This document shows positions 12,746 through 46,700 of a stretch of 64,000 nucleotides of DNA, piece by piece. The stretch is from positions 18,662,001 through 18,726,000 of the forward strand of contig JBHGNT010000010.1 in NCBI GenBank assembly GCA_043228905.1, written 5' to 3'. Positions within the stretch are counted from its first letter, which is position 1, and the number at the start of each line of letters is the position of its first letter. The stretch comes from Azolla caroliniana (lineage: Eukaryota; Plantae; Polypodiophyta). Position numbers and translations under genes: made by a program. The notes beneath the pieces were generated by a model that saw only the letters and a program-made list of their open reading frames with translations, ran no database searches and had not been told where the DNA came from.

Positions 12746-13295
12746 TCTCTCTTCCAAGGTTTAGGGTTGCATCTGTGAACTCATCTGTTGTTTTTTACAC
12801 CTCAATTTTAATGTTTCAGCCATGTGTACTCGATCTGACTGCTTAATGCATCATGGTCGCTGCTCACATCGTGATCTGTCTTCTTCTTCTTTTGTTTCAA
12901 TCGCATTGTGAAACCCTGAGCTACCTCACAATGTCCACAGGAACCAGTTTAGTACCTCACAATGTCCAAAACTGGAACCCTAGATTATTTCACAACCGCT
13001 CCAACTATGTCACACTTCTCCAAAAGCAAATCCGAAGCTTCTCTATTTAACATATTTCTCTATACATCAGATCTGGGTTTCCGCACTTTCAATTAGAATA
13101 CTTGCTTAAAGTTCACTAAATATGTTTATATGTATAAGACTTTCAATTAGAATAACTAGCTTATTTATAATACAAATGCTTGGTTAAAGTTTAGGGTTTT
13201 TAGTCATCTCGAAACTTAAGATTAACTCGTAATTATATTTGTGTTCTGGCTTTATGCTAGTTTTTTCTCACAACTGCATGCATTTACATGAAACT

Positions 13296-14257
13296 GAAAC
13301 TTGATTTGATCTTTCCACTCTTAAAAGCTTGAACTGATCTTTCCACTCTTAAATCTTGAACTGATCTTTCCACGCTTAAAGCTTGAACTGATCTTTCCAC
13401 TCTTAAAGCTTGAACTGATCTTTCCACTCTTAAAGCCTGATCTGATCTTTCCACTCTTAAAGCCTGATCTGATCTTTCTTCTCTTAAAGCCTGATCTGAT
13501 CTTTCCACTCCTGAAGCTTGATCCGATCTTTCTTCTCTTAAAGGTTGAACTGATCTTTCTACTCCTAAAGCTTGAACTGATTTTTCGTCTCTTAAAGCTT
13601 GAACTGATTTTTCGTCTCTTAAAGCTTGAACTGATCTTTCTTCTCTTAAAGCTTGAACTGATTTTTCGTCTCTTAAAGATTGAACTGATTTTTCTTCTCT
13701 TAAAGCTTGAACTGATCTTTCTTCTCTTAAAGCTTGAACTGATCTTTCTTCTCTTAAAGCTTGAACTGGTCTTTCTTCTCTTAAAGCCTGACCTGATCTT
13801 TCTTCTCTTAAAGCCTGATCTGATCTTTACACTCGTAAAGCTTGATCTGGTCTTTCTTCTCTTAAAGCTTGAATTGATCTTTCTTCTCTTAAAGCTTGAA
13901 CTGATCTTTCTTCTCCTAAAGCTTGAACTGATCTTTCTACTCCTAAAGCTTGAACTGATCTTTCGTCTCTAAAAGCTTGAACTCATTTTTCGACTCTTAA
14001 AGCTTGAACTAAAGCTTGATCTGGTCTTTCTTCTCTTAAAGCTTGAATTAATCTTTCTTCTCTTAAAGTTTGAACTGATCTTTCTACTCCTAAAGCTTGA
14101 ACTGATCTTTCGTCTCTTAAAGCTTAAACTGATCTTTCGTCTCTTAAAGCTTGAACTGATCTTTCGTCTCTTAAAGCTTGAACTGATCTTTCTTCTCTTA
14201 AAGCTTGAACTGATCTTTCTTCTCTTAAAGCTTGAACTGATTTTTCTTCTCTTACAG
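13296..14257 (+). repeat. 27-bp minisatellite (~35 copies, consensus CTTGAACTGATCTTTCTTCTCTTAAAG) in the SAMS 5'UTR intron
   Basis: Directly visible, with a HindIII site at most unit junctions. The last unit ends ...CTTACAG at 14257. Confidence 0.97.
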
Positions 14258-14360
14258 GTTGAGCTTATATTTTTTTTCTTAAGATTTTCATTTCTGGGTT
14301 TTTGGTGCTTTTGTGTAAGCAGTTGGAATATCCATAAAGTGTGATCATATATAGAGGGAG

Positions 14361-15827
14361 ATGGAAACATTCCTTTTCACATCCGAGTCTGTGAATGAAG
14401 GCCATCCTGATAAGCTATGTGACCAAGTGTCGGATGCAGTCTTGGATGCTTGCCTAGAGCAAGACCCCGAGAGCAAAGTTGCATGTGAGACATGCACAAA
14501 GACCAACATGGTGATGATATTTGGAGAGATCACGACGAAGGCCGTGATCGATTACGAGAAGATCGTGCGAGACACGTGTCGCGAGATTGGTTTCGTCTCT
14601 GCTGATGTTGGCCTAGATGCTGACAATTGCAAGGTATTGGTGAACATTGAGCAGCAAAGCCCGGACATTGCCCAAGGAGTCCATGGGCATTTCACAAAGA
14701 AACCCGAAGAAATCGGGGCTGGTGACCAAGGCCACATGTTCGGCTATGCCACCGATGAAACCGAGGAGCTTATGCCTCTTAGCCATGTCTTAGCCACTAA
14801 GCTTGGTGCTAAGCTCACGGAGGTACGGAAGAATGGCACGTGCTCTTGGCTACGGCCCGATGGGAAAACTCAAGTCACAGTTGAGTACAAGAATGAGGGA
14901 GGTGCAATGGTTCCGATTCGTGTTCATACTGTCTTGATCTCGACCCAACACGATGAGACGGTGACTAACGACAAGATTGCGGCCGATCTCAAGGAGTATG
15001 TGATCAAGCCCGTGATTCCGGAGAAGTATTTGGATGAGAAGACCATCTTCCACTTGAACCCATCTGGGAGGTTCGTCATTGGAGGCCCTCATGGTGATGC
15101 CGGTCTCACTGGTAGGAAGATTATCATTGATACTTATGGTGGGTGGGGAGCTCATGGTGGTGGTGCTTTCTCTGGCAAAGACCCTACCAAAGTGGATAGA
15201 AGTGGAGCTTACATTGTGAGGCAAGCTGCCAAAAGTGTTGTTGCATCAGGACTCGCCCGCCGATGCATTGTCCAGGTCTGCATAAGTTCTAAACTGATAG
15301 CCCTATATATTATATTATATATATATAATGTGCATTATAAAGGATTTTAGGATCTGGTTAAGGATTCCTGAATCAGATTTAGGATGGTAGGTCTAATTCT
15401 TGACCCCTTTAGAATTAGGATCCCTGTGTAATGTCAACTTCATAACAAACTTTGATGTGCATACATATTTAATCCTTGTACAGTTTAATTCTTGTATGGT
15501 TTAATTCCTGTATGATTTATCCTTGTATACATACATTACATTCGTGGTTTACATTTGTGCATATAGGTCTCTTATGCTATTGGTGTACCCGAGCCGCTGT
15601 CGGTGTTTGTCGACACTTATACTACCGGCAAGATCCCGGATGCTGAGATTTTGGAGATCATTAAGGAGAACTTTGATTTCCGACCAGGGATGATGGCCAT
15701 CAACCTTGACCTTCGCAGAGGCGGGAACAAGAGGTACCAGAAGACTGCGGCGTATGGACACTTTGGCCGAGATGACCCCGACTTCACATGGGAAATTGTT
15801 AAGCCCTTGAAGAGTTCCAAGGCCTAG
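14361..15827 (+). CDS. SAMS: S-adenosylmethionine synthetase (methionine adenosyltransferase), 391 aa, 2 coding exons
   Basis: Exons 14361-15275 and 15567-15827 are joined by a phase-0 GT-AG intron. Motifs [47 protein letters not shown] and TAAYGHFGR are present. Confidence 0.98.
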
Positions 15828-18710: not shown

Positions 18711-18784
18711 AGAAACTTTAGGAAATATGCTGAAGTTTAGAACCAGGAGGAGGAGACGGAGGAGGAGGAGGTGTAGTGTGAGCT

Positions 18785-20422
18785 ATGGATCCTTCTCTTC
18801 TCTGCAGATTCAGTACTAGGGTTTCTCGTCTCATAAAATGGAACGCATATTCAGTCAGATACCTCAGCGATGCAGTCTCTGCTTCTTCTTCACTATCATC
18901 CTCTTCACCTTGGAACCTCATAGACCTTCTTCATGAGGATGATTCGGCGGCCACAGCGTCGAACAAGGCGAACCTTTATAACCCTTGCCTTACCATTTCC
19001 AATTGGTCTTCAGCGAAGAAAGATCATCATACCCACTCTCTTTCGTCTTACTCTGATTTGATACAAAAGCTGTGTGATGCCAAAATGTTTGCAAAGGTAT
19101 GGCAAGTGTTAGAAGATATGAGGTCGAAAAACTATGAAATCCCACCCTCTATGTTTGAGAGGATTGTAGAAGGGTATTGTGATGCTGGACAAGTTAAGCC
19201 GGCCATAGATGCATTTGATAAAATGTCTGGTTACAATGTTCGCCCGACCATCAAGATGTACTCGTGCCTCATTGCCCATGTTGTGCGTGTGAAACGACAC
19301 CATGTCTCTCTCCGCCTCTACAGGAGAATGATCAGTGAAGGTTTACCACCTAATGTCATAGTCTTTAGTGCCCTTATCCATGGTTATTGCCATGTGGGTG
19401 ACATAATGGAAGCTCATAAGCTTCTTGATGAGATGAAGAGAGAAGGATTGACACCGAATGAGCCCATATATAATTGTCTTATCGAAAATTTAAGCAAAGC
19501 ATGTCGGTATTATATGGCAAAAAACTTGGTCATTGAGATGAGGCAACAAGGGCTGGTACCTTCATTGATTGCTTATAATTCACTCCTTGAAGTTCTTTGC
19601 AAAGAGAGAAGGATAGTGTCAGCGCATCGGCTTTTCCAAGACATGAAGCAAGCGGGTATTTCACCCAATGTCGATACATACAATATTATGATAGATGGTT
19701 TTTTTCGAATGAATGGCGTTACAAGGGCTATGAAGCTTTACAAGCAAATGGCGAGAGCTGGATGCCCCCCTGACATCCACACTGACAAGGTCTTGTTGTC
19801 TGGTTTCACACGAACTGGAAAGCTAAGCCGGGCTATGACCTTATTAGATTCATTGGTCTCATCTGGAAGAAAAGTTGACATTATTGGTTGTAATACTATT
19901 CTTCATGACCTATGCTCGAAGAACATGAAAAAAGCTGAGGAATTTTTGAGCAAAATCTCGAATGGTATTTGCATACCCAATGCCATCACTTACACTACTT
20001 TGATGCATGGATATTGTAAGACAGGTCGGATTAATGATGCTGAACGTACTTTTCTCTTAATGAAACAGAAACAATGCAAGCCCACGAGTGTAACATATGA
20101 AGCTTTGATTTGCGCATATTGCCGAATAGAAAGAGTGAAGGCAGCCTCAGATCTTTTCGAAGAGCTAATGCAAGAAGGATTGCATATGAATAGTTCTACT
20201 TGTAATGCACTTCTTGATGGATTAAGCCGTGCTGGATTAGTTGATCATGCATTGAAATTGCTCGATTATGTTCTTGATAAGAGGCTAGTTCTTGATCCTG
20301 ACAAACTTGTTACGTTTCTGAGAGCGCTGGGGAAGCGAGGAAGAGGGCCAGAAGGGAAAAATGTATTAAGGGAAATGGCCAAAAAAGGTTGTCTAAAAGA
20401 ACCTTATGCATCGATGTTTTAA
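18785..20422 (+). CDS. P-class pentatricopeptide repeat protein, 545 aa, intronless, probably mitochondrial
   Basis: About 12 consecutive 35-aa P repeats (e.g. PNVIVFSALIHGYCHVGDIMEAHKLLDEMKREGLT) follow an Arg/Ser-rich N-terminus (MDPSLLCRFSTRVSRLIKW..RYLS). Confidence 0.95.
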   Translation: MDPSLLCRFSTRVSRLIKWNAYSVRYLSDAVSASSSLSSSSPWNLIDLLHEDDSAATASNKANLYNPCLTISNWSSAKKDHHTHSLSSYSDLIQKLCDAKMFAKVWQVLEDMRSKNYEIPPSMFERIVEGYCDAGQVKPAIDAFDKMSGYNVRPTIKMYSCLIAHVVRVKRHHVSLRLYRRMISEGLPPNVIVFSALIHGYCHVGDIMEAHKLLDEMKREGLTPNEPIYNCLIENLSKACRYYMAKNLVIEMRQQGLVPSLIAYNSLLEVLCKERRIVSAHRLFQDMKQAGISPNVDTYNIMIDGFFRMNGVTRAMKLYKQMARAGCPPDIHTDKVLLSGFTRTGKLSRAMTLLDSLVSSGRKVDIIGCNTILHDLCSKNMKKAEEFLSKISNGICIPNAITYTTLMHGYCKTGRINDAERTFLLMKQKQCKPTSVTYEALICAYCRIERVKAASDLFEELMQEGLHMNSSTCNALLDGLSRAGLVDHALKLLDYVLDKRLVLDPDKLVTFLRALGKRGRGPEGKNVLREMAKKGCLKEPYASMF

Positions 20423-22254: not shown

Positions 22255-25200
22255 TTAATCATAATCACACAGGCACCTACTGCCTTCAAAGATGTGAACA
22301 CAGTTGGCATCACGCACTAGAATTCGGCGCTTCTCAACCATTGATATAAGTGAGATGGTTGAGTGGCAGCTATTGCAAATCCGCATGTTCATTGTAACAC
22401 ATATAGGCATGCCTTTAGGTGTATTAATGAGAGCACATCCAATAGCCATCTTGCTGCTGTGGCCACACAAGTCCTTCCTTTTATTGTCTGAAATGGTTTG
22501 TCTATATACCCAATTTGAATGTTGGAAATGGTCTACTTGTGACAGTTTCCTATGGATCTCGTCTATCTTCGCATGTATGAGAATATTTTGAGGATGGCTC
22601 TTATCATCTTCAACAAAAGAATGCATATTTCCAAGACAATCAATCCACTGACAACATCCATATATTTTTGATGCTTTATTCTTAGCTCTCAAAACCTCAA
22701 TTCTTTCTGCCTCTGCTTGCATTCCAGCAGTTGCATATATTTGCTCCATGCAGAAATATGCAGCTGAACATGTTTCATCCAATCCCACTGATTTTTCAAA
22801 CGTCCATCTCCCGTAAGTCACATTCCTCCATTTTCTACAGGCAGCCAGCATTGTTAAAAATGGAACAATATGGCCACAATATGAAACTTTCTCAAGCAAC
22901 GCTTTTGCCTTCTCAATATGTCCAGCTCGACCAAATAAATCAATCATACACGTGTAGTGCTCTACCACCGGATTGAGATTGTTAACGATATGCATTTCAT
23001 TGAAAAATAACTGTTCACCCTCCTTCAGAAGGCCAGCATGACTGCATGCAGTCAACAGAAGAATGAACGTAACTGAATTTGGTACTATATTAGCTATCTT
23101 CATCATTGTATAGAGGTATAAGACAGCATTGGCTTGACCTAACTGGGCATATCCACCTATCAGGACATTCCAACATACAGCATCATGTACTGGAAGTTGT
23201 TCAAACACTTCTTGTGCTTTCTTCAGTGCACCACACTTAGAATACATGTCTAGCAATGTATTACCAAGAACCGCATCTTTTTGTAATAATCCTTGCTTTC
23301 CAATCTCTTCAACTATACCCTCCCCAATCTGTAGTGAACCCAGAATACTACAAGTTTTCAAGATACAAGCATAAGTTACTGCATCAGGAGAGACTCCCTT
23401 AGCTTTCATCTGTCTGAAACATTGAAAAACTTCATCATTGAACCCTTGGTGTGCATACCCAGAGATAAGGGCATTCCAAGCCACCACATTATGTGTTGGA
23501 AGCAGTTCAAATACTTCTTGTGCTTTCCTTAGTTCCCCACACTTTGAATACATGTCCACCAATGCAGTGCCGAGAACAATGTCTTTTTGCAATAGCCCAT
23601 TCCTCCTGATCTCAGAATCTATCTCTTTTCCAAGTTCTAGACACCTAACTATGCCACAGGTTTTCAAAATGCATATATAAGTCACTGCATCTGGATTTAT
23701 TCCCTCTTCTTGCATTTGTATGAAAAACTCTAACGCTTCATTACCGAGTCCATGGTGGGTATATCCAGCAATAAGGGCATTCCAAGAGACCACGTCTCGT
23801 ACTGGAAGCTGTCTAAACATGTTATATGCCTTCTGTGGTGCACCGCACTTAAAATACATGTCCACCAATGCATTACCAAGTACAATATCTTTTTTCTCAA
23901 ATCCTTGCTTTCTAATATCAGCATCTAGCTTATCTGCAATCTGTAGAGACCCTACAATGGCACAAGCTTTCACAATGCAAACATAAGTTACTATATCTGG
24001 ATGCACTCCTTCATCCTCCATTTGTCTGAAACACTTCAATGCTTCATCCCCGAGACCGTGTTGGGCATACCCAGTAATGAGAGCATTCCAAGAAACAACA
24101 TCTCGCAATGGAAGCTGTTCAAAAACGTCACGTGCTTTTTTCAACTCTCCACATTTGGAATACATGTCTACCAATGCATTGCCGAGTGCAACATCTTTTT
24201 CCAATAACCCTTGCTTTCTGACCTCTGTGTGTATGCCTACTCCAATCTCTAGAGACCTTATAGCACCACAAGCTTTCAAAATGCAAACATAAGTTACTAC
24301 ATTTGGACGTACTCGCTCATCTTTCATCTTCAGGAAACAACCCAATGCTTCATCACCTTGCCCATGTTGGATGTATCCAGCAATGAGAGCATTCCACGAC
24401 ACTGCATCTCGCATTGGAAGCTGTTGAAATACTTCTTTTGCTTTCTCCAGTGCCCCACACTTTGAATACATGTCCACTAGTGTATTTCCAATGGCAATGT
24501 CAGTTTGCAAAAGCCCTTGCTTTCTGACCTCGGCATCAATATCTTTTCCGATATCTAGAGATCCGATAATTCCACAACATTTCAAAACACATATATATGT
24601 TACAGAATCTGGACGAACACCATCATCTCGCATCTGTTGAAAGCACTTCAATGCTTCATGACCAAGTCCACAATGGGCATATCCAGCAATCAAAGCATTC
24701 CAAGTCACAACATTTTGTATCCGAAGTTGGTCGAACACTTCTCGTGCTTTCATCAGCGCACCACACTTGGCATACATGGCTACTACGGTGTTGCCAAGAA
24801 CCACATCTTTTTGCAATAGCTCTTGCTTTCTGACCTCAGCATCAATTTCTTCCCCAATCTCTAGAGATCCAACAATGCTACAAGCTTTTAAAATGCAAAT
24901 ATAAGTGACCGAATCTGGACGAATGCCAGTAATTTTCATCTGCTTCAAACATTTTGAAGCTTTGCTGGCAAGGCCATGTTGTGCATATCCAGTGATGAGA
25001 GCATTCCAAGAAACAACATCTTTTATGGGAATTTGTTCAAAAACTTCTTCGGCTTTCTCCAGCACCCCACACCTAGCATATGCAGTAACCAGGGCAGTCG
25101 CAATATAAGCATCCTTTGAAATCAAGCTTTTCTTCAGAATCTCGTTATGGATTCTCTTTGTTTGCACGAGATTCTTTGATTTTCCAGATGATTTAATGAG

Positions 25201-25763
25201 ATTCAAAAGTGTGATTCGATCAGGAAATTCTATTTTTGGAAGCTCGTGTGCCACTTCCGCATGAAAGATTAGGTTTTTTACCTTGTCTTTGACGCAAGGG
25301 GGGTTGTGGTGTGCATCTATCCATAAAGCTTTTCCTGTTTTTTTGTGTCTGAAATCAGGGGATTTGGCACTTCTCTGTCATGAAACACCATTAAAGCTTA
25401 ACATATAGCGCACAACGCAGGGGTGATGATGCATGATTGCCAGCAATCGTTTGTGATACTGGTTTGAAGTGCTGATTATGTATGATATTTTGTAGTCCTG
25501 CTGTATATGCGGTGGTGATAGCATATGATAAGGTATGGTGAGTGTATGGTGATGATGATAATGTATGATGAAATTTGGTGATGATGCATAATGATGATAG
25601 ATGATGCATAATTGTGAATTAGGGTGGTAGTGATAATGTATACTGTATGATGTAAATGTGATGATTTTGATTTGCTTACTTTGTAGTGACGATTATCCCA
25701 AAAGCTCGAAGGATCCCTCAAGAGCTCTTCCCACAGGAACTGCGTATCTTTGCATACATTCAT
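22255..25763 (-). CDS. PLS-class PPR protein with N-terminal OSB-type PDF motif and C-terminal E/DYW-like domain (~1067 aa; start uncertain)
   Basis: Exon 25763-25680 (donor AAA|GTAAGC) joins exon 25374-22255 (acceptor TGACAG|AGA) in phase 0, in frame with the 999-aa ORF. It encodes 7 P-L-S triplets, E motifs and a DYW-like tail (GHSSKMAI...NMRICNSCH...CLCDYD). Confidence 0.88.
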
Positions 25764-27134
25764 CTCCACTGTCTCCGCCTCCGTCCGTCTGTCTGTCTGT
25801 CTCTCAGATCATTCCTTGGAGAGAAATACACGGCAAGCATTTTTAATCAAGAAATCCATAGCTCGATTATATTCTTCTTCTTCTTCTTCTTCTCCTGAAG
25901 CTTTCCATTACCAACGCTCTGCTCAAAATTAGGGCCAAACGCTGTAAGCCATGCCCCTAAGGTTTTGTGATATTTACAAGACTACCCCTTTATCATTCCT
26001 TCACCACCAATACTCGGGAACTAGAGTCATGAGATTTATTACTATAAATAACTCGTAGGAGGCTATATTTTGGTAAGTTTGCGGGGGCGTTTTCAGTAAA
26101 CTGTATGCCATTCGATTCGACCCGCCAACTCATGGATAGTTAGCCTTCGATTCGATTTCCTTTTACGTTAATCGTCTTTTACTATGGTTCGAGTTTCATA
26201 AAAGCCCCCGAGGAATCGAGATTCTAATCAAGTTCCAATGCTTTGCTATATTATCTCATGATTTCCTTAAATGCCTTCAGTTATTTAATCGTATTCAACA
26301 ACATTCTTCACTTAAAGGGCAATATCGTTTCTGTTTGTTGTAATGGTGGAAAATATGTCACTGTCAAGGTTGCGAACCCATTTTTTACGTGTCATTTTGC
26401 CATTCTGCATATCATGAACATAAAACCCTTTGTTCAAGACATGGCTTAGGCTAAATTTATGAAAGGGATTTACGATGTACCCCATGTTATTAAACCCATT
26501 CTCACGTGTTACATTACACCAACATTTTAGGTTTTTGGTAAGCTATTTGTGTGGAGGTGTCCTCCTCATAGTCTAAATAAGATCCTACATATCAAGCCAC
26601 GTGATAACCATAATCATCCATAATCATCGTGACAGGTTGAACACACATAAAATGCTTATTTCACATTATGTTGTAGCACCTCATGCCTTGTTACTAAATT
26701 GCAAGCGCGAGCAAATTGTATAAATTCCACTTCTTCATCATTGATTGAGGTTTGGACCAAATTCATGGAAAGGACAAATGCAACACATCATTATTACTTG
26801 TCCCAAGCAAATTTAACAACACAATTATCAATGGATCCAATTGTTGCAATTAAAGAATTGCCCTTGATTTGTTGAGCACTATGTCTCTCCCATCAAGATG
26901 GAGAATCAACCCTTTAAAACATGACCAACGCCACTATATTGTGACAAACCTGAACTATCATTTTCTGAATCTTCATGTGAATCATTTATGCCTAGTATAC
27001 ATATAAACATAAACATAAAATTAGACTGTATTAAAAGGTGCCTTATGCAATACTATATTGAGCCAACAAGTAGACACAAAATTTACATCATTTACAAATT
27101 TAACGTACAAAACAATTAACAAAATTATTAGTTT

Positions 27135-30014
27135 TTACACCATTTCCATACAAGCTGATGCATATATACTTTCAATACAAACATATGCAGCCTCATAGTC
27201 CTCGTCCATATGTATCTTTGATTCCTCAAATGTCCATTGTGCAAGCTTCACGTTCCCCCATTTCCTACAAGCACCCAACATGGTTAAGAACAACCAAAAA
27301 TGACCACCCGAACATGACACATTTTTTAGCACTGCTTTTGCTTGATCGAAGTATCCAGCCCGACCATATAGATCAATTGTACAACTATAGTGTTCTATGG
27401 TTGGAAAGACACCATACACACTACACATTTTGATAAACAACTTTTCTCCCTCCTTCAAAAGACCTATGTGACTGCATATAGCTAGCAAAATCGTGAATGT
27501 GACCGCATCTGGAACAATATGTTCCAATGTCATTTTCCTGCATAGGTCTGAAACTAAATTAGCTTGACCTAACTGAGCATATCCACCTATGAGGGCATTC
27601 CACGAGACCAAATCACGCATTGGGAGCTGTTCGAATATCTCCCGAGCCTTCTCTGTTGCACCACATTTGGCATACATGTTTACTAATGCATTGCCAAGCA
27701 CAACTTCTTTATGCAGTAATCCTTGATTTGTAACCTCCACATATATGTTTTCCCCAGTCCCAAGAGAACCTATCATACCACAAGCTTCCGAAACGCAAGC
27801 AAACGTTATTGCATCTGGATGAATACCCTCGCCTTCCATCTCTTGGAAACATTTTAATGCTTCTTCTCCGAGCCCATGTTTGGTGTACCCAGCAATGAGG
27901 GCATTCCAAGGAACAACAGTGTTGGTCAGAACATATTTGAATACTCCTCTTGCTTTCTCTAACTCACCACATTTGGCATACATGTCCAGCAATGCTGTGC
28001 CAAGCACAGTATCCGTTTGTAATAGTCCTTGCTTTCTAACCTCGGCATCTATAAATTCTCCAACCTCTAGAGACCCTACGTTGCCACAAGCTTTTAAAAC
28101 ACAGATGTAAGTCACCACATTTGGACAGATGCCTTTATCTTGCATCTCCTTGAAGCATTTCAATGCTTCATCACCAAGCTCATGTTGCGAATAACCAGAA
28201 ATCAATGCATTCCAGGAAACTACATCACGCATTGGGATCTCTTCAAATACTTCTCGTGCTCTCTTCATTGCACCACATTTGGAATACATGTCCAACAAAG
28301 CATTTCCAATCATGATATTTTCTTGCAATAATCCACGCCTTCGGATCTTAACTTCTATATCTCTTCCTATCTCGAGAGACCCTATAATGCCACAAGCTTT
28401 TAAGATTCCAGTATAAGTTATTATGTTTGGACAAATTCCTTCATCTTCCATCATTTGGAAACATTTTAATGCTTCATCACTGAGGCCATGTTGGACATAA
28501 CCAACAATAAGAGCATTCCAAGACACAACATCCCGTACAGGAAGCTGTTCAAATGCTTCTCTTGCTTTCTCCAACACACCACACTTGGAATACATGTCCA
28601 CCAATGCGGTACCAATCACAACATCATTTTTCAGTAGTCCACGCTTCCTGACCTCAACACAAATTTCTTCCCCAAATTTTAGAGACCTTACAATGCCACA
28701 GGCTTTCAAAGCACATATATAAGTCACAGCATTTGGACAAACTCTCTTATCTAGCATCTTCTTGAAGCAGTCCAGTGCTTCATCAGCTTGCCCATGTTGG
28801 ACATAGCCAGCAATGAGCGCATTCCACAACACAACATCCTGCCCTGAAATCTGCTCAAATACTTCCCGTGCTTCTTCCAATGCACCACACTTGGCATACA
28901 TGCTTACTACAGCAGTGCTGAGAGCAACATCTTTATCCATTATCCCAAGGTCTCTAACCTCCACATGTATATCCTTCCCAATATCTACAGATTTGACAAC
29001 GCTGCAACTTCTCAAAATGCACATATACGTTATCGAATCGGGAGAAACTCCATCATCTCGCATCCGTTGAAAGCATTTCAATGCTTCATGACCAAGCTCA
29101 TGCTCGACATATCCATTGATGATGGCATTCCACGACACGACATCACGTACTGGAAGCAGATCAAATACTTCTTGCGCTTTCTCCAACACACCACACTTGG
29201 AATACATGTTTACCAATGTGTTCCCAAGCCCAACATCTTTCTTCAATAATCCTTGTTTTCTAACTCTAGCATCTATAACTTCTCCGATCTCCAGAGCTCC
29301 TGTAATGCCACAAGCTTTCAAAATACAAACATAGGTTACTATGTCAGGCATGACTCTAGCAGTTTCCATCCTTCTAAAGCAAATTAATGCTTCATCCCCG
29401 AGCCCATGCTGGACATATCCAGAAATCAAAGCATTCCACGTTACAACATTATGAATAGGAATGAGATCAAACACTTCTTGAGCTTTATCAAAAGCACCAC
29501 ATTTTGAATACATTGCAACCAGCGTATTACCAAGCAGCACATTCTTCTCCAGTAAACCTTGCTTCCTAACCTCACGATCAATATATTCCCCAACATCCAA
29601 AGACCCATTAATGCCACAAGCTTTTAAGATGCAGATATAAGTGACTGAATCGGGGAAGATTTCAGAATCCTCCATAAGCATCAAGCACTTCAATACATTG
29701 TCATGGTGGCCATGTTGGGCATATCCAGAAATCAAGGCCGTCCACGTAACAACGTTTGGAATAGGGATCTTCTCAAACACTGCCTGTGCTTCTTGAAGGG
29801 CACCACACTTTGTGTAGGTTGTAATCAAGGCTGATGCAATATAAATATCTTCAAAGATCAACCCCTTCTCAAGGACGAATCCATGTAGCCTTCTGGCTTG
29901 ACAAAGATTCTTCTCTTTGCCACAAGACTTTATCAGATTCAAAAGCTTCACTTGATCATGGTGGCACAGTAGCTTACCTTCGGGGGATGCAATCATGTCA
30001 GGCGTGGGTTTCAT
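27135..30014 (-). CDS. PLS-class PPR protein (959 aa) ending within the E region, no DYW; tandem paralogue of the adjacent gene
   Basis: 8 P-L-S triplets with the same LLNLIKSxGKxKNL N-terminus and KQGLLxKD L-motif ends as the neighbour. It ends ...AYVCIESIYASACMEMV*. Confidence 0.92.
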   Translation of the reverse strand: MKPTPDMIASPEGKLLCHHDQVKLLNLIKSCGKEKNLCQARRLHGFVLEKGLIFEDIYIASALITTYTKCGALQEAQAVFEKIPIPNVVTWTALISGYAQHGHHDNVLKCLMLMEDSEIFPDSVTYICILKACGINGSLDVGEYIDREVRKQGLLEKNVLLGNTLVAMYSKCGAFDKAQEVFDLIPIHNVVTWNALISGYVQHGLGDEALICFRRMETARVMPDIVTYVCILKACGITGALEIGEVIDARVRKQGLLKKDVGLGNTLVNMYSKCGVLEKAQEVFDLLPVRDVVSWNAIINGYVEHELGHEALKCFQRMRDDGVSPDSITYMCILRSCSVVKSVDIGKDIHVEVRDLGIMDKDVALSTAVVSMYAKCGALEEAREVFEQISGQDVVLWNALIAGYVQHGQADEALDCFKKMLDKRVCPNAVTYICALKACGIVRSLKFGEEICVEVRKRGLLKNDVVIGTALVDMYSKCGVLEKAREAFEQLPVRDVVSWNALIVGYVQHGLSDEALKCFQMMEDEGICPNIITYTGILKACGIIGSLEIGRDIEVKIRRRGLLQENIMIGNALLDMYSKCGAMKRAREVFEEIPMRDVVSWNALISGYSQHELGDEALKCFKEMQDKGICPNVVTYICVLKACGNVGSLEVGEFIDAEVRKQGLLQTDTVLGTALLDMYAKCGELEKARGVFKYVLTNTVVPWNALIAGYTKHGLGEEALKCFQEMEGEGIHPDAITFACVSEACGMIGSLGTGENIYVEVTNQGLLHKEVVLGNALVNMYAKCGATEKAREIFEQLPMRDLVSWNALIGGYAQLGQANLVSDLCRKMTLEHIVPDAVTFTILLAICSHIGLLKEGEKLFIKMCSVYGVFPTIEHYSCTIDLYGRAGYFDQAKAVLKNVSCSGGHFWLFLTMLGACRKWGNVKLAQWTFEESKIHMDEDYEAAYVCIESIYASACMEMV

Positions 30015-33000
30015 TAACTGTGTCTCTTCTCATCACAGACCACAGAATGCGCGTCAATTCTGACCGCACTGTGTGGACCTACACCACTTACATCCTCTGA
30101 GAAGCACAAAATTACAAGATTGTGAGCAACTGAGCTTCACAGATATATCATTTGAATCCATTTGAAACAACTGTGCGAAACGAAGGGGTAACTAGTCTCA
30201 ACGTCAGATAGCAGGAATCTGATCATTTCAAACAAATTTATATTTCGGCGACTGATCTCCCCATGTCTCAGTAATACGAAGTAAGCGTATTTGTAGGCCC
30301 TTCACAGGATTAGTTTTATAAATCCCACAAGTTTTTACCAATTTACTGCTAAATGCTCATAAAATAATCTACAATACAATTCACAGTTTGGAAAAAGCGT
30401 TTAAAACTGAACCACATAAATTTACCAAAGATAAGATATTGGGAAAAAAAGTGAAACAGTTTCAGCAGTTTACACCATATTCGGTTGGATTCGCAAAACC
30501 ATCTTGGACTCTGCAATTGGAACTTTTACCCTACATATGTACAATAATTCCAAGCCTACTAAAGCTAAGAATCTGCCTCTTCTTTGATACACATTATTGC
30601 AGTTCTAATAAACACTAATCATTGGACACATTAACCACCTCAAATGACAGCATTTATTTGCTATTCTAAACTACCATTGGAAAAACAAGACACTTAATAG
30701 AGTTCAATCCACTCAATGACACCATGTCTTCCCCGTGATTTCCGTTAAATCTCTGGTATTAGCTACATTTTTAAAATAACTGCATTCATGATCCGGGGAA
30801 TTAACTCATTTTTTGATGGTAAGTAGAATTACATTCTTGAGTTGTTGATTGACAGTTACAATTAGGAAAATTTTTCTTCTCTACTCGACTTCATCTACAT
30901 TAAATTGTGGATGCCACATTTCTTTGCACGTGATAACATAAACAGATAAAATCCAAAACAGGATCATGAAAATGATTAAAATCCTATAATGTATTCCAAG
31001 GATTAAAATTCAAAGGATTAAACTATGAATAACGGTTTACTGGAGCCATAAAGCATCAATGGTTATGAAGATAAGGGTGTTTTCCAGGAGGAATTAAAGG
31101 TAAATGTTTGAACAATAAACATTCTTTTATATCTATTTGAAAGGTATATATAGAACCACAATCCCTTCAATTTTATGAACATATTCAGGGATCGCCAACA
31201 GCACAGCTCAAACGTAAAAGTTTTGGGTGACACATGATACGATTGGACTTGGGCCCTAGCTAACGTTATAAGCTCGGCTTAGCTTCAGGGTTGCCCTAAC
31301 CATATCTAATTTCTCAACATTTCAACCCAAATCTGGTTTTAGCCTTCGCACACCGTAAACACCTTGCAACACAATTCATTTCGTGGTGTTTTATATATTC
31401 TCTTTACCCACAGCGTTAACGAATACGATGAAAACACCCGCCATTTCTACAAAACCTTCAATACAAAATCTAACTTTCATACATTCTAATTCGATTCCTT
31501 TTATCTTCGACTTTGTATATTGTTCTCATACAAACTAAATGCCTGTGTCATGCCCCTACTTTCCCATGTGTTAATAACAATGAAATTCCTCAGAATGTAA
31601 CAATATACAAAGAGCTTCTGAAATCGTAAAGTGCTCTTTTATATTATCATGTTGATGTCCTTCTGGGCCAGTAAAAAGTGTACGACAATTTGGCGGAATG
31701 AGAGGGTTTTTCTATTTCACTAGCAATTCAAGGTCCATTACTTCATAGCTAAACAACAATACAACATACTTCCAGCTCTTCTTGCATATACAGTTACATT
31801 CGTCACATATTATCATTTACTCTACCACGTTTACAGGAAGCAAATCGACAAATGTTTATGCAGAACACCTTGGTCCAGAGTTTCCAAAACTTTCAAAAGT
31901 TGAATTAGAGATGAAGAATTCAGGATTAAAAGAATAACTGCCTCAAAATCAATACGGACTCTAACCAAGAACATTCATAATATAATAACATAACCAGTGC
32001 TAAAAATATGGGTATGTGCATCCTTTGGAACTCTTACATTTACCAACATGGAAATGTTAGTTGTAATCTTATGTAACATAAATAATGCGATACAGGTTCC
32101 TCGCCCACCTTCACCACTCTTACGTCCAACTGAATCCATAAGTCAGTTAATAGCACTGTGGTTTTGATTCAAGCTGATTCAAAGATCCTCTCACTTTGGT
32201 TTGGTTGACTTCCATTCTGAATGAATGGAAATATACAATCGTTTCCGACCAGCTACATTAACGAGTACAGGAATGCGGATTACAGTGCCCGATTACGTAT
32301 ATACAATGGTCTTCTACTAATTAAATTAATAGATACTGGAGTGCGAAATACAGAAGCCAGAGTCCGTCTATTTAGTCGTCTCCCTCTAACTAGATTCATG
32401 TGTACTGCAATGCAAATTCAGGAGATTTTTTCTTCTTCATAACAAACATCACCAAGGAAGTGTCCAGTTAGACACAAAAAAAGAACGATTCGCAGCCAGA
32501 ATCAGAGTCCCAACACTGACACCAAGGCGAACGAAACAAACCATTTCTAGGTCATCCTGTACAAGTCGGTTACACTAGTCCTAAATGTCTCACATGTAGA
32601 ATGTCGACTGTTTGTGATTCTCGATTGAAGTCTATACCCTCGATTCAACATTACACCGAACTTTCAGACAAGATCAAAAGTACGCACTACGCATTGTTAT
32701 AGTCCTCACAATCGGCATTAATGTGCGAATTCTACGGATGTCAATTAGTGCTAATTCGGAAGACGAAAACAATACACCGGCATCTATATCAAGCACAGAT
32801 ATTTTCTTGAAGGTGATAAAGATTTGAGATAGCCGATCGGTAATTTTAAATGCTGTAGATAGAAGAGATAAGCCTGTACGAAAAGCATCGCTAGAACATG
32901 CATTTCACCACATTTGGACATCGTCTGGAAGCAATCGATCATTCGGAACTACCTATAAGAAAACTTAGCTACAGATAAACCTAATATCGCAGTTCGAAGA

Positions 33001-41361: not shown

Positions 41362-42576
41362 CTAAGAATCATGGTATCGAAGCCAACAATCATCCGAATG
41401 GAAGCTCGCGACCCTCGAGAAGGTGCAACTACGGGCGATGGTGGAGATAGCGAATCGAAGACAACTCGTGCAAACGAACCTCGGTAGGAAAGGCCTACAA
41501 AACGCGGCCGCAGAGCCGATGTCCCCCACTTTCACTTCCACGACCTCATGGGTTGTGGTTGTGCCCACACTTGCTTGTACCAATAGCTCCCCTAGGAGCC
41601 ATGTCACCTCCCTCTCGTAGTCGAACCTTGGCTCAAACTTGTCTAGCCCGCATATGTAGTCGAATGGCGTGGGTTGCACCAATTCGTGCCGTGCTCCGGC
41701 CAATGTGGATTGTGTGGGATCATCATTTGCTCCCCCGACACTCGGCTTCGGCACATCCATCCATGGTGCCTCGTGGTGGTGAGATGGCGAAAGAATGTCC
41801 GAGGAGGAGACGTTGGGGTTTGAGGCCGGAGGAGATGGTGGCGTCAACACCTCAGCCACCGCCGGAGATGGAGATGGAGATGGAGATGGAGATTGGGCGT
41901 GATATGTGTGGTGGATTGGGATGTGCATCCATGGTGCCGCAAAATGAGGCGGCGATGGAGAGGGAGATATAGAGAGTGGCATTAGGGTTGATGGTGAAGG
42001 AGGGGGAGAAGGAGATATGGTGGTCGGCATTGATGAGCTTGTGGGAGAAGGAGATATGGATGAGCTTGGGGGCGAAGGAGATGGAGATGGAGATGGAGAA
42101 GGAGAAGGAGAAGGAGAAGAAGAAGGAGATATGGTAGAGGATATACTTAATGCTGATGGAGAAGGAGAAGGAAATATGGTAGAGGATATACTTAGTGCTG
42201 ATGGAGAAGGAGAGATGGTTGATGGCATTGATGTGGATGTTGAGCTTGAAATTGAGCTTGAGGGGGATGGAGATGGAGATGGAGCTGGAGTCCCATATGC
42301 ATGTTTGAAATGATTCTTGTGTGTCGGAATACGCACCCAAGGTGATCTCCACCGAGCGGCCGATGGAGATGGAGATGGAGAGAGAGATATCTTTGCATGC
42401 TTATTTCGTTTAGAGTGATGGGAGAGAGAAGGAGAAGGAGAAGGGGAGATTAAAGGAGGATTTGATGCAGAAGAAATGTACATTGTAGTTGGTAGAGGAT
42501 GAGGGGAGAGGGGAAGAGAGGGAAGAGGGGAAAGAGAAAGAGAGGATGAAGGGGAGAGACCACCACCACCACCACC

Positions 42577-42609
<33 letters not shown>

Positions 42610-43770
42610 GGTGGTGGTGGTGGTGGTAGTAGTAGGAGGAGGAGGAGGAGATGGTAGGATGGAGGGGGAAGGAGAAATTCTTGAAGGCTCCGCATTCGAA
42701 GGGGAAGGAGAGCTATCGGACGAGGCAATTGTGGTTGAAGGGGGTGGAGAAGAATCCAAGCTTGTTGGGGAGGGTGATGCATTGGACCTTGATGGAGATG
42801 GAGATGAGGTAGAGGCTAATGTGGGAGAGGGAGAGGAAGAGGGAGAGGGAGAGTTGGAAGCCAACCCCACTGAAGAAGTCAAAGGTGGCATCGAGTGTGA
42901 AACGGACGAAGAACCCAATGTCAAGATGGAGTGAGGGGGGATCGAGCTTGACAAAGTACTAGTAGGAGGCTCGCTCGACAAAGTAGTAGTAGGAGACTCG
43001 GGAGAAGGAGAGAGAGACTCGGCTGGAGAAGGAGAGGGGAAGGGAGATGGGGAGGGTGAGGGTGAAGCTAAACTTGTTGAAGGAGTTGAAGTGGAACTAG
43101 TAGTAGAATCCAATCCGAAAATGGAAGGGGGGAAGGTCAAGCTTGACGAAGGACTTGTAGGCGTCTCGACAGAGTGAACAATTTGTTCTATAGATGGAAG
43201 AAGAGGGGGTGGGATGGGAATAAGAGTAAGATAACAATTGGGAATAGGAGAGCGAGAGGGAGAAAGGGTAATGAAGCACGAAAGATAGAGGGATCCAAAA
43301 GGAGAAGAAGGAGAAGGAGAAGGAGATTGGGAAAAGGGGTCGGACAAAGGTATGGAAATGTATGGGGGAATATGACTGGACAAATACGGAAGGGACGATT
43401 CGAAGGAGGAGTTCAACGAAGAAGTTGCAAGAAAACGATTGAGAGATGCTAGTGCATATGAAAGGGGGGAAGGGAGGGAAGAAGAGGGTGAGGACGAGGG
43501 AGATTGGGTAATGGACGATTGAGAGGAGGACATTGAGTGAAAGTGAGAATGTGAATTGGAGTGGTAATGTCTATGAGGGTGGGAGTGGGGATGGGTATGG
43601 GGATGGGTATGAGAATGGTGAGCATGAGTGTGAGGGTCTCTAAAGGGCATGTTACTACTACTCGAAGCCGATGGGCCGCTTGCTTGGAAGGACATACTAT
43701 CTTGCGCTATCACATTTGTAATTGCGACCTGCATGCTTATGATCAACATAATCACCATTGTAGCTTTCAT
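41362..43770 (-). CDS. Secreted Ser/Pro-rich (AGP/extensin-like) His-rich protein with one C-terminal DUF26/Gnk2 domain, ~802 aa, intronless
   Basis: Signal peptide MKATMVIMLIISMQVAITNVIAQ, a His-rich tract and long SP dipeptide runs. The C-terminus has C-X8-C-X2-C (CRPFLPRFVCTSC) followed by C...CWLRY, the DUF26 signature. Confidence 0.85.
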
Positions 43771-46700
43771 GATTATGTGCCCATGTATTGTCATTTCGAT
43801 CCTTTGGCAAAACAAAAAGAAAACGGAGTTTGTTAAGAGTTAGTCGACCATGTTGGAACTGAAAAGACTATTAACTTCATCATTGTTACGAAAACAAGAT
43901 CAATATACACCACCTTCAATTAGTCTCACATTCATGCATGTTTGAAGCCACTTTTCCCAAAAACATGAATGAATTATATATCACTTAGGTGCAATGACCA
44001 TGCCATCTATGTCTCCATGGAGTAATCCTTATTAGTTTCACAAGGTATATACTCGTTTCCTAAATCACATTAATAAATTTTGAAATACAAGTTATGACAC
44101 ATTCGCATTCCCTCTATCACATTGTACTCTCACATTTTTTATGATTTTTGTCAATCTAGAAGGCACATCATCATTGCGCAAACATGTTTTGACAACATCA
44201 TGATAAAAGTCAATTGAAATGCCATAATAAATGAGCTTGAGTAAATTGGAGCTTAACCACATATCATCGCATGAGAATATGATCCTTTGTAACGAGGACA
44301 TAAGTGAAGTTGTAATATGTTCAAAGATCATGTTCACTATTCATACAAATTTGAACTTAATTGTGTATGTTACCTAGCAATACAAGCATTATCTTTGTCA
44401 CAAGTTTATGAATATAAGTTTTAAACACTATAAGGTTATGAATAATGTAGGTTCCATAAATCTTTGATACAATGCAAGGATTCAAACATTACACATGCAA
44501 GAGTAAAGAATGAACCTGTTACTAAATGAATGCATATATTGCTAACCGAGACGTCAAACTTGAATTGGCAAGGTGTTCATTTATGCGCATCTAGAAGACA
44601 ATGTTGATCATCGGACCACATACTAAAGAATAATGGATATTAAACTTTTGTATACCAGTCGATGATATTACCATATAAATTGTTCACTTATGAAGTAATT
44701 CTTAATGTTAAGAAGATGTGAATTATTCATATAGCTCAAAACTTACGTAAGAGAACATATAAAAGTTTGAATTTGAATTCTGATATTCTAATGCAACATA
44801 GATTACATGTAAGTATGACTTCAATACCCTTCTGTGAATGCACGCTACACGTATGGATCACCCAATGTTCCCATTTAAGTGCATGCTCATTTTCAATTAT
44901 TTCAAAAGTGAAAAAGGCTGCATATATGAGAGTAAAGAACCTGATAGTACATGAATGGATATAATTTGATGATCAATGTGTCGAACCTCTATCAACAAAG
45001 CTCATGAGCGCTATATTCTATTTATAACGAAAAATCATTCATCAATGAAATGAGGCTAAAAATAATTCTCGATGTTCAGGTAGCTACACCTTTATTTCAT
45101 GTAGGTTTTATTTGTTTGACATGTTCACTCAATTTAATACGCACATTCTCTTGGTGTGAGTATATGGTAATGAACTTTTTGTTATTGATTTTTCAAATAC
45201 TACAATTTTGTTTTCTCTGTTTGAGTTTTCATCCCGTAGTTTTAGTATTAAATTTACCAAACCCTCTAAGTTACTCTAATGAGATTGTGCAACTGACAAT
45301 GATGAATGTCATAACACAAAATGAAAGGTGATGTATAAGCTTCGTGTGATTGCATTGTTAATATTTTTATACTAATAATTATAGACATATTATCCATGTT
45401 AAATCTCCATAGTATACATATATAAAAGCAACCACTTTCTCAAGCAAATCATATTTCTACCAAATAAAGGAACGAGAAGAACATACATACATTGTTCCAT
45501 ATTTCTAGGGCGATCAATAATTCAGTGATAAAATATTTTAGATTCATTGTCAAATTTGGTCCATTAGAGTGTGACGAGTATGAATATGACACTAATTTGA
45601 TTAAAAATGAGAAACTTATGACTAGTAGTGGGTAACCCTGGCAAAGGCAAACAATACTTGTTCTTGGAATAAGGCATGTAAGCAAAGAAGCATGATCCAC
45701 CCCCCACCCCCATCCCCTCTCTCTCCACGCCTCGCTCTCGCTCTCTCTAAATGTCAAGCAATGAGTTTAATATGATGCAAAAACTTACATCAAATGTAGT
45801 ACAAAAAGATACATGTTGGTCACATATCATCTAACGTATTGATGGAAACAATATAGAAACATGATATATACACATGCATGAACATACATACATGCATGCA
45901 TACATGTATATATACATGAATATGTGTTACACTCTTTCTACAATGTAGTTCGATTATGTTGAAGTAGGGCAAACATTTTTACTTAGAATTCAAATATATG
46001 ATTGCTTTGCTTTGTGCTATAAGTCAAGAGATGTTTAAAGTTATAAGAATTCCCTCAAATTACCATTAAAAAAGAATTTGGTTTGTCCTAGTCAACTCCT
46101 CTGTGTGTGTTTCAGTGGGTGCATGTCTTGCCTCTCCTAAGTGATGTGCACAACGTAAAAATATAATATCTATGTCTTGTGTTATGAAATAACTAAAGTT
46201 GTCATGTTTGTCGAAGTTAACAAGAATATATATAAAGAGTAAACAAATGTTGGTGGATGTGACCTTTTGAAGCTAATGATTTTTTCTTTATAGTTTATTG
46301 TTTGGATTTTGATATCGAAAGTCGATGCTTTTGTTAATAAAGAAAGAAAGCACGCACACACCAAGCTAGACTAAAACATTGTCGACAATTGTTGTTTCAA
46401 GTTAAAGCAACTCAGTGTATATGATGTTAGCATATAGACGCGAAAAATGTATTTTCAAAGTATGTTTGCTATGGTTTAGTGATATAAAAATGTATTTCAA
46501 AGTATGTGGGCGATATAAAAAAGCATACCACCCAACCGAATTGAATTTCCATATCATACAACATAGCTTTTGAGTCGAATGTCCAAACCCCAAACTTCAT
46601 TGTATATAAGACTCTTCCTTTGGAAAGCTCTAAGAGAATATTTGTAAATCAGCAATTTATGTATAAAACGTAATCTTATTGGGAATCAACAAAATTCGAA

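Follow-up and report, generated by a model that had tools for sequence, protein, structure and literature searches.

The PDF motif is best described from the organellar ssDNA-binding (OSB) proteins of plants, of which it is the ssDNA-binding part, with ssDNA reported to be preferred over dsDNA and RNA (PMC4166229, PMC6963530, PMC6451138). For OSB1 and OSB2 the preference for ssDNA over RNA is reported individually, and the same review describes the motif as confined to green plants (PMC4166229). Another closely related group consists of the PLS-class PPR-E-DYW editing factors, of the DYW:PG type (such as OTP86 and PPR56) and of the DYW:KP type. PPR proteins fused to RRM, MORF or RanBP2 zinc-finger domains, that is, to an accessory nucleic-acid-binding or cofactor domain, have also been reported (PMC13386178).

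Within the 64,000 nucleotides of Azolla caroliniana DNA analysed here, which we call the window, we identified a gene that combines the first two of these systems. PDF-PPR proteins, as we call them, share with OSB proteins the same 50-residue PDF motif with the same core residues, often in tandem, but they have no SSB/OB domain, and their PDF is N-terminal rather than C-terminal and is followed by a PLS-PPR array with E/DYW. With the editing factors they have in common the P/L/S array, the E motif and a DYW fold with its H and CxxC, and most of the DYW-bearing members keep HSE and a PG-type box. They differ from them by the added N-terminal PDF, and the Azolla copy differs further in being without the catalytic Glu, a KP box, HAE or an evident transit peptide. 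Unlike the accessory domains of the reported PPR fusions, the PDF derives from DNA-maintenance proteins, and the main text of that 2026 survey of editing-factor fusions (PMC13386178) contains no mention of OSB, PDF or SSB. In a search that was largely confined to the open-access literature, and did not extend to the main subscription surveys of PPR proteins in seed-free plants, we found no description of a PDF-PPR fusion. The architecture is real and conserved, made of two known parts, and apparently undescribed. Catalogues of PPR editing factors go by the PPR, E and DYW regions, and Pfam has no model for the PDF motif, so that the motif can go unnoticed.

Gene structure and identity of the PDF motif

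An earlier note on this DNA had proposed that the PDF motif is split by an intron and spliced in frame onto the PPR protein. The gene lies on the minus strand and is composed of an 84-nt exon and a long exon beginning at 25374 (Table 1), and joining the two by their coordinates gives a single frame of 1067 codons whose sole stop is the terminal one at 22257-22255. The joint 25374>25680 (305 nt skipped, with CT..AC ends on the plus strand) is present in contigs of all four runs, from three studies, these runs being from close relatives (about 95-97% alike, with no more than 0.30 of the window's words in common) and not from the window's own sample. A wider contig alignment found single records that span the joint in two of the four runs, and one contig (X13 record 19) extends from 25862 to 24551, passing through the splice and deep into the PPR array. 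The RNA status of these runs is guessed or unrecorded and none is recorded as RNA; the exact skipping of the intron, together with the absence of cover over 26104-27100, makes the contigs consistent with an RNA origin. The proposed splice and its reading into the PPR array are thus borne out in these relatives, and the PDF-PPR-E-DYW gene is spliced with its frame intact.

Table 1. Features of the PDF-PPR gene and of its upstream paralogue in the window
Feature	Position	Strand	Remarks
Transcribed 5' leader	25764..25862	-	Likely untranslated
First coding exon	25680..25763	-	Likely ATG start at 25763, 9 residues, then first half of PDF; covered by spliced contigs
Intron inside PDF motif	25375..25679	-	305 nt, GT-AG, phase 0; skipped in contigs of relatives
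PDF motif, second half	25282..25374	-	Profile alignment; the motif is residues 10-59 of the joined protein
Variable linker and probable degenerate first PPR motif	25111..25281	-	Motif parse; differences in relatives
PLS-class PPR array	22972..25110	-	21 parsed S/P/L motifs; Pfam
E motif region	22642..22824	-	Pfam PF20431, 22.8 bits, under the cut-off of 27.3
PG-box-like stretch and DYW domain	22255..22641	-	Zinc ligands H and CxxC retained; catalytic Glu replaced
Tandem upstream PLS-PPR paralogue	27135..30029	-	58% identical to the PDF gene over 839 aligned residues; ends in E region

The first 70 residues of the joined protein scored 50.4 bits on a profile made only from OSB sequence (the three motifs of a protein named OSB3 at NCBI), against 11.8 bits for the best of 1000 shuffles and 17.5 for the unspliced ORF alone, so that the OSB-type identity put forward earlier also holds. 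The motif has about 50 residues, the Pro-Asp-Phe signature and the conserved Trp, Asp, Arg and Lys positions. The Azolla copy retains 11 of the 13 core columns, and two of the four most conserved Trp are changed, to Phe and to Cys. We could not find an SSB-like OB domain before the PDF: neither frame scanned had an SSB match in Pfam, and just 9 residues lie upstream of the motif. By contrast, OSB-type loci from metagenomes match PF00436. A chance motif or a mis-splice was considered and is ruled out by the junction in all four runs and by the profile score relative to the shuffles; a single decaying locus is ruled out as well, since the frame has no internal stop and the 53 listed differences that were tested introduce none.

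An AlphaFold2 model of the isolated motif reached a pLDDT of 92, and in the model of a full Sphagnum member the PDF remains ordered, with pLDDT of 75-91 over residues 91-160, through the PDF/PPR junction. No relatives of the fold were found by sequence, by Foldseek or by VIA-align (best result Z 2.4, rmsd 3.5, 50 aligned); a model of only 54 residues tells little on novelty. A protein atlas search gave no match for the motif, while the ORF matched PPR-DYW clusters only, and one exact pattern run against prokaryote genomes gave 73 matches, with none confirmed as PDF.

Two further arrangements of the motif were observed. Dinoflagellate (Cladocopium) proteins, those of cluster P0006 and many matches to the profile, carry up to nine PDF motifs in tandem and no OB domain, in contrast to the confinement to green plants described in the review (PMC4166229). 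Two metagenome loci (L068, 3146-4384, and L079, 2396-4375) encode an SSB domain with one PDF and an SSB-like acidic C-terminal tail, on high-GC, gene-dense eukaryotic contigs that are likely from small green algae. This is plausibly an ancestral form of OSB.

PPR array, DYW domain and N-terminus of the Azolla copy

PPR, E and DYW regions were all recognized by Pfam in the downstream ORF, the PPR families far over the cut-off and the DYW domain (PF14432) with 70.4 bits. PLS arrays repeat triplets made up of P (35), L (35-36) and S (31) motifs, and the 21 parsed motifs follow each other in S-P-L order, as expected of this class. The code pairs of the P and S motifs are mostly N/D, and since N/D pairs specify U in the PPR code, a U-rich RNA target is predicted.

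The PLS-PPR-DYW label given in the earlier note stands as far as the domains are concerned, but that note had missed two features of this copy. One is the active site, which reads HSS in the window and HSN in the relatives instead of HSE, so that the HxE(x)nCxxC catalytic signature is incomplete; the His and the CxxC zinc ligands are retained. The Glu of HxE is reported to be essential for editing (PMC7611903, PMC9478123), and having lost it, the Azolla copy would bind a U-rich RNA but leave it unedited. We also looked for the features of U-to-C editing DYW:KP domains and found neither HAE nor a KP box, the box being of a degenerate PG type by pattern (compare PMC9478123).

The other feature is the N-terminus. 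Just 9 residues precede the PDF and no transit peptide is evident, so that the Azolla copy may not reach an organelle. A longer N-terminus beginning from an upstream in-frame ATG at 25859 was rejected: that frame is closed by a TGA at 25811-25809, with no difference listed in relatives, and the 5' leader of one relative has a frame-shifting 8-nt insertion. One contig, from run X16, crosses the splice and has a different 5' end of 575 nt joined at 25776, with no canonical acceptor and with the 30 letters shown open in frame. An 18-base search for this alternative end gave no match in the window. The X16 end is probably an assembly chimera, the alternative being a first exon outside the window. 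Given a DYW domain predicted to be dead and an unclear targeting, the Azolla copy is a poor test case for what the PDF does on PPR proteins.

Of the differences that relatives show in this gene, the five that fall within the PDF are all synonymous, where a share of 0.19-0.26 would be expected without selection (p about 0.001), and the relatives show 7 non-synonymous and 3 synonymous differences in linker residues 60-80. For the DYW region 8 of 24 differences are synonymous (PDF versus DYW, Fisher p 0.011), a rough figure, being based on the 40 best-supported of 391 rows, pooled over relatives. Left out of these counts are rows that fall outside the coding frame and row 25345, whose contig is paralogous. 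Judged by these substitutions, the DYW domain of the Azolla copy appears to drift while its PDF changes synonymously only. The relatives also have other PDF-bearing contigs, up to three per run, that match 25314-25376 at about 80-88%; in one of them, 2030 nt long, the motif lies close to the 5' end and is followed by about 1900 nt, as expected of another PDF-PPR gene.

A family of PDF-PPR proteins in seed-free land plants

Searching with the first 60 residues of the ORF gave one match among 16 candidates, a Diphasiastrum PPR-E-DYW protein with three PDF motifs. When the PDF region of that protein was used as the query, 193 proteins of 581-1850 residues were found. Among the 120 of these listed, 108 are Diphasiastrum clusters (103 gene names), 7 are from Sphagnum, 2 from Calypogeia and 1 from Ceratodon, the remaining two being an OSB3 and a dinoflagellate protein with PDF repeats only; 118 of the 120 listed are thus PDF-PPR proteins, and no seed-plant PDF-PPR protein is among the named matches listed. 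A search with the Ceratodon region added a second Ceratodon PDF-PPR protein (3 of 3 matches), and an Adiantum PDF-PPR protein with two PDFs was also found. The suggestion that plant proteomes should be searched for PDF together with PLS/DYW thus had a positive outcome, with at least 118 such proteins among the listed matches, while the idea of a lone hybrid did not survive it, PPR proteins that begin with PDF being present in Diphasiastrum, Sphagnum, Ceratodon, Calypogeia and Adiantum. These results confirm that PDF-PPR proteins are a conserved family spread over seed-free land plants, not a one-off.

The arrangement is constant within the family. In every one of the 119 PDF-PPR proteins parsed, the first PPR anchor comes after the PDF, and 48 of the 108 Diphasiastrum clusters have the PDF in 2-4 copies, as in OSBs. 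At least 40 residues come before the PDF in 87 of 117 members, rich in S/R/T, poor in D/E/K and resembling a transit peptide; 14 of the 117 have fewer than 20. In thirteen columns of the motif, conservation is 93-100% among the 188 OSB motifs and likewise among the 162 PPR-borne ones; these conservation counts are dominated by Diphasiastrum paralogues. The conserved core includes basic residues (R, K, K), and the flanks vary.

Nearly every family DYW domain parsed has a complete catalytic site, with HSE and CxxC retained in 32 of 33. Standing beside an ssDNA-binding motif, such a domain might be aimed at ssDNA or R-loops, so that members would edit or mutate organelle DNA, and the active sites of DYW and APOBEC3A are reported to superimpose (PMC7611903). 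We consider this highly improbable. Most members have no DYW, PDF and DYW are located at opposite ends of a long RNA-reading array, and the Azolla DYW is without its Glu in the window and in the relatives, so that the DNA-directed deaminase suggested earlier is unsupported for the Azolla gene.

A wider search with a PDF profile gave 1344 clusters at E <=0.001. Local tests on the best 150 of these, a selection that favours multi-copy proteins, found an OB domain in 74, PPR in 8 and neither in 68. Among the best 80 of 532 metagenome loci, many of which are one gene repeated, 45 encode PDF and PPR together in a single frame without introns, in 17 the PPR follows downstream, and the other 18 are without PPR; among the latter are 14 OSB or SSB-PDF genes (8 of the 14 were checked against Pfam). 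Four metagenome copies (L051, L055, L059, L061) have stops in or near the PDF, and such broken copies point to a family that turns over fast.

The intronless frames and the broken copies would suit a PDF that is merely a passenger, captured from an OSB gene with a promoter and transit-peptide cassette, copied in a retroposition-driven PPR expansion and functionless on PPR proteins. The PDF of OSBs is C-terminal, so that such a cassette would require a rearrangement. A passenger is improbable in our view. Across the 162 PPR-borne motifs, which come from a liverwort, mosses, a lycophyte and a fern, the core residues are 94-99% conserved, in contrast to the variable flanks. Tandem multiplication of the motif has also occurred, and its changes in the Azolla gene are exclusively synonymous.

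Some indication of the age of the fusion comes from its intron. Three loci of one Sphagnum-type gene (L067, L070 and L071, matching P0107) carry a GT-AG phase-0 intron whose place in the motif, behind the same Lys, is that of the Azolla intron. No genomic OSB with a split PDF motif was found among the 80 loci, a set that favours unbroken matches. A tree of 86 motifs and 53 columns, which sampled 39 of 163 PPR-borne and 47 of 188 OSB motifs, grouped 36 of the 39 PPR-borne motifs, including that of the window, with a single OSB motif (support 89/85). This group adjoins three SSB-PDF sequences, and three motifs of P0204 sit apart. The bootstrap of this tree is not settled, 11 of its 83 branches are starred, and 4 label changes are needed. 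We infer that the fusion of an OSB-type PDF with a PLS-PPR gene goes back to an early land plant and took place once or a few times. The simplest reading is one early fusion followed by intron loss, consistent with a report of retroposition in the PPR expansions of early land plants (PMC13386178). The intron-bearing form would then survive in the Azolla gene and in the Sphagnum-type gene, whereas the majority of the copies found have no intron, an outcome expected of retroposition.

Possible roles of the PDF motif on PPR proteins

The retention of the core residues and the multiplication in tandem, both as in OSBs, make a single-strand grip the likeliest role of the motif. The N-terminal PDF would hold the PPR factor, independently of sequence, at organelle nucleoids near nascent RNA. 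Most DYW-bearing members would then be ordinary C-to-U editors with an added tether, and the Azolla copy may confer specificity or stability, perhaps in partnership with a DYW from another protein, as DYW donors acting in trans have been proposed for ferns (PMC12548569). On present evidence, the chances that the PDF is a non-specific grip tethering PPR factors at nucleoids seem to us evenly balanced. Sequence cannot separate ssDNA from ssRNA binding; the Azolla copy, with its two changed Trp and its short lead, fits the proposal less well, and its 58% identical neighbour has no PDF, so that such arrays exist without one.

PPR arrays bind RNA with their N-terminus towards the 5' side of the target. 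Perhaps, then, the PDF grips ssRNA just 5' of the PPR site, unfolding the RNA or raising affinity, as a cis version of part of the job done by MORF/ORRM in seed plants. The invariably N-terminal position of the PDF agrees with this, as do the 16 members with a single PDF, mostly from Sphagnum and Calypogeia, in which the motif abuts the first repeat at a fixed spacing; the Sphagnum model that is ordered through the junction points the same way. However, PDF-PPR linkers are long and variable in the other members, the Azolla copy included, OSB1 and OSB2 favour ssDNA over RNA (PMC4166229) and OSB and PPR motifs do not differ in their core residues. The absence from seed plants, for its part, rests on the 120 of 193 matches listed and on a small part of the 1344 clusters. 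We regard an RNA grip as rather unlikely.

A third possibility is that the PDF binds protein and not nucleic acid, recruiting a partner such as another PPR protein, a DYW donor or the transcription machinery. It is a small Trp-rich domain that folds alone in the model, and 84 of the 108 Diphasiastrum members parsed without a complete DYW signature and would depend on a partner for catalysis. We nevertheless give this little credence, given that ssDNA binding is the sole published activity of the PDF (PMC4166229, PMC6963530, PMC6451138) and that the conserved R, K and K suit nucleic acid.

Returning to the tether at the nucleoid, a more far-reaching form of it can be put forward only tentatively. 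PDF-PPR proteins might be an ancient, undescribed class of editing factors of seed-free plants with its own ssDNA-binding module, in which hundreds of PPR editors would dock on the displaced strand of transcription bubbles or R-loops, coupling editing to transcription at the nucleoid as a cis counterpart to the cofactors of seed plants. Whatever its role, the PDF is an easily overlooked module, carried by more than 100 proteins in a single lycophyte and maintained in plants as far apart as liverworts and ferns. Should it bind single strands as in OSBs, it would be a physical link between organelle RNA editing and DNA maintenance, where and when editing occurs would become testable by one deletion in a moss member, and a small portable domain would be available for synthetic PPR editors.

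The neighbourhood of the gene was also inspected. The upstream paralogue has no DYW and no PDF, and local alignment found no PDF remnant upstream of it. A single-frame P-class PPR gene of about 545 residues (18782-20422, plus strand) is convergent with the PDF-PPR gene, and 12 kb of DNA here hold three PPR genes. An ORF at 14355-15350 (plus strand) resembles S-adenosylmethionine synthetase in its motifs. The stretch 13284-13972 is a head-to-tail repeat of about 27 nt with open frames on both strands, and a long Ser/Pro-rich ORF at 41362-43839 (minus strand), in a region of strong local GC skew, has a signal-peptide-like start and a Cys-containing end, as in a cell-wall glycoprotein.
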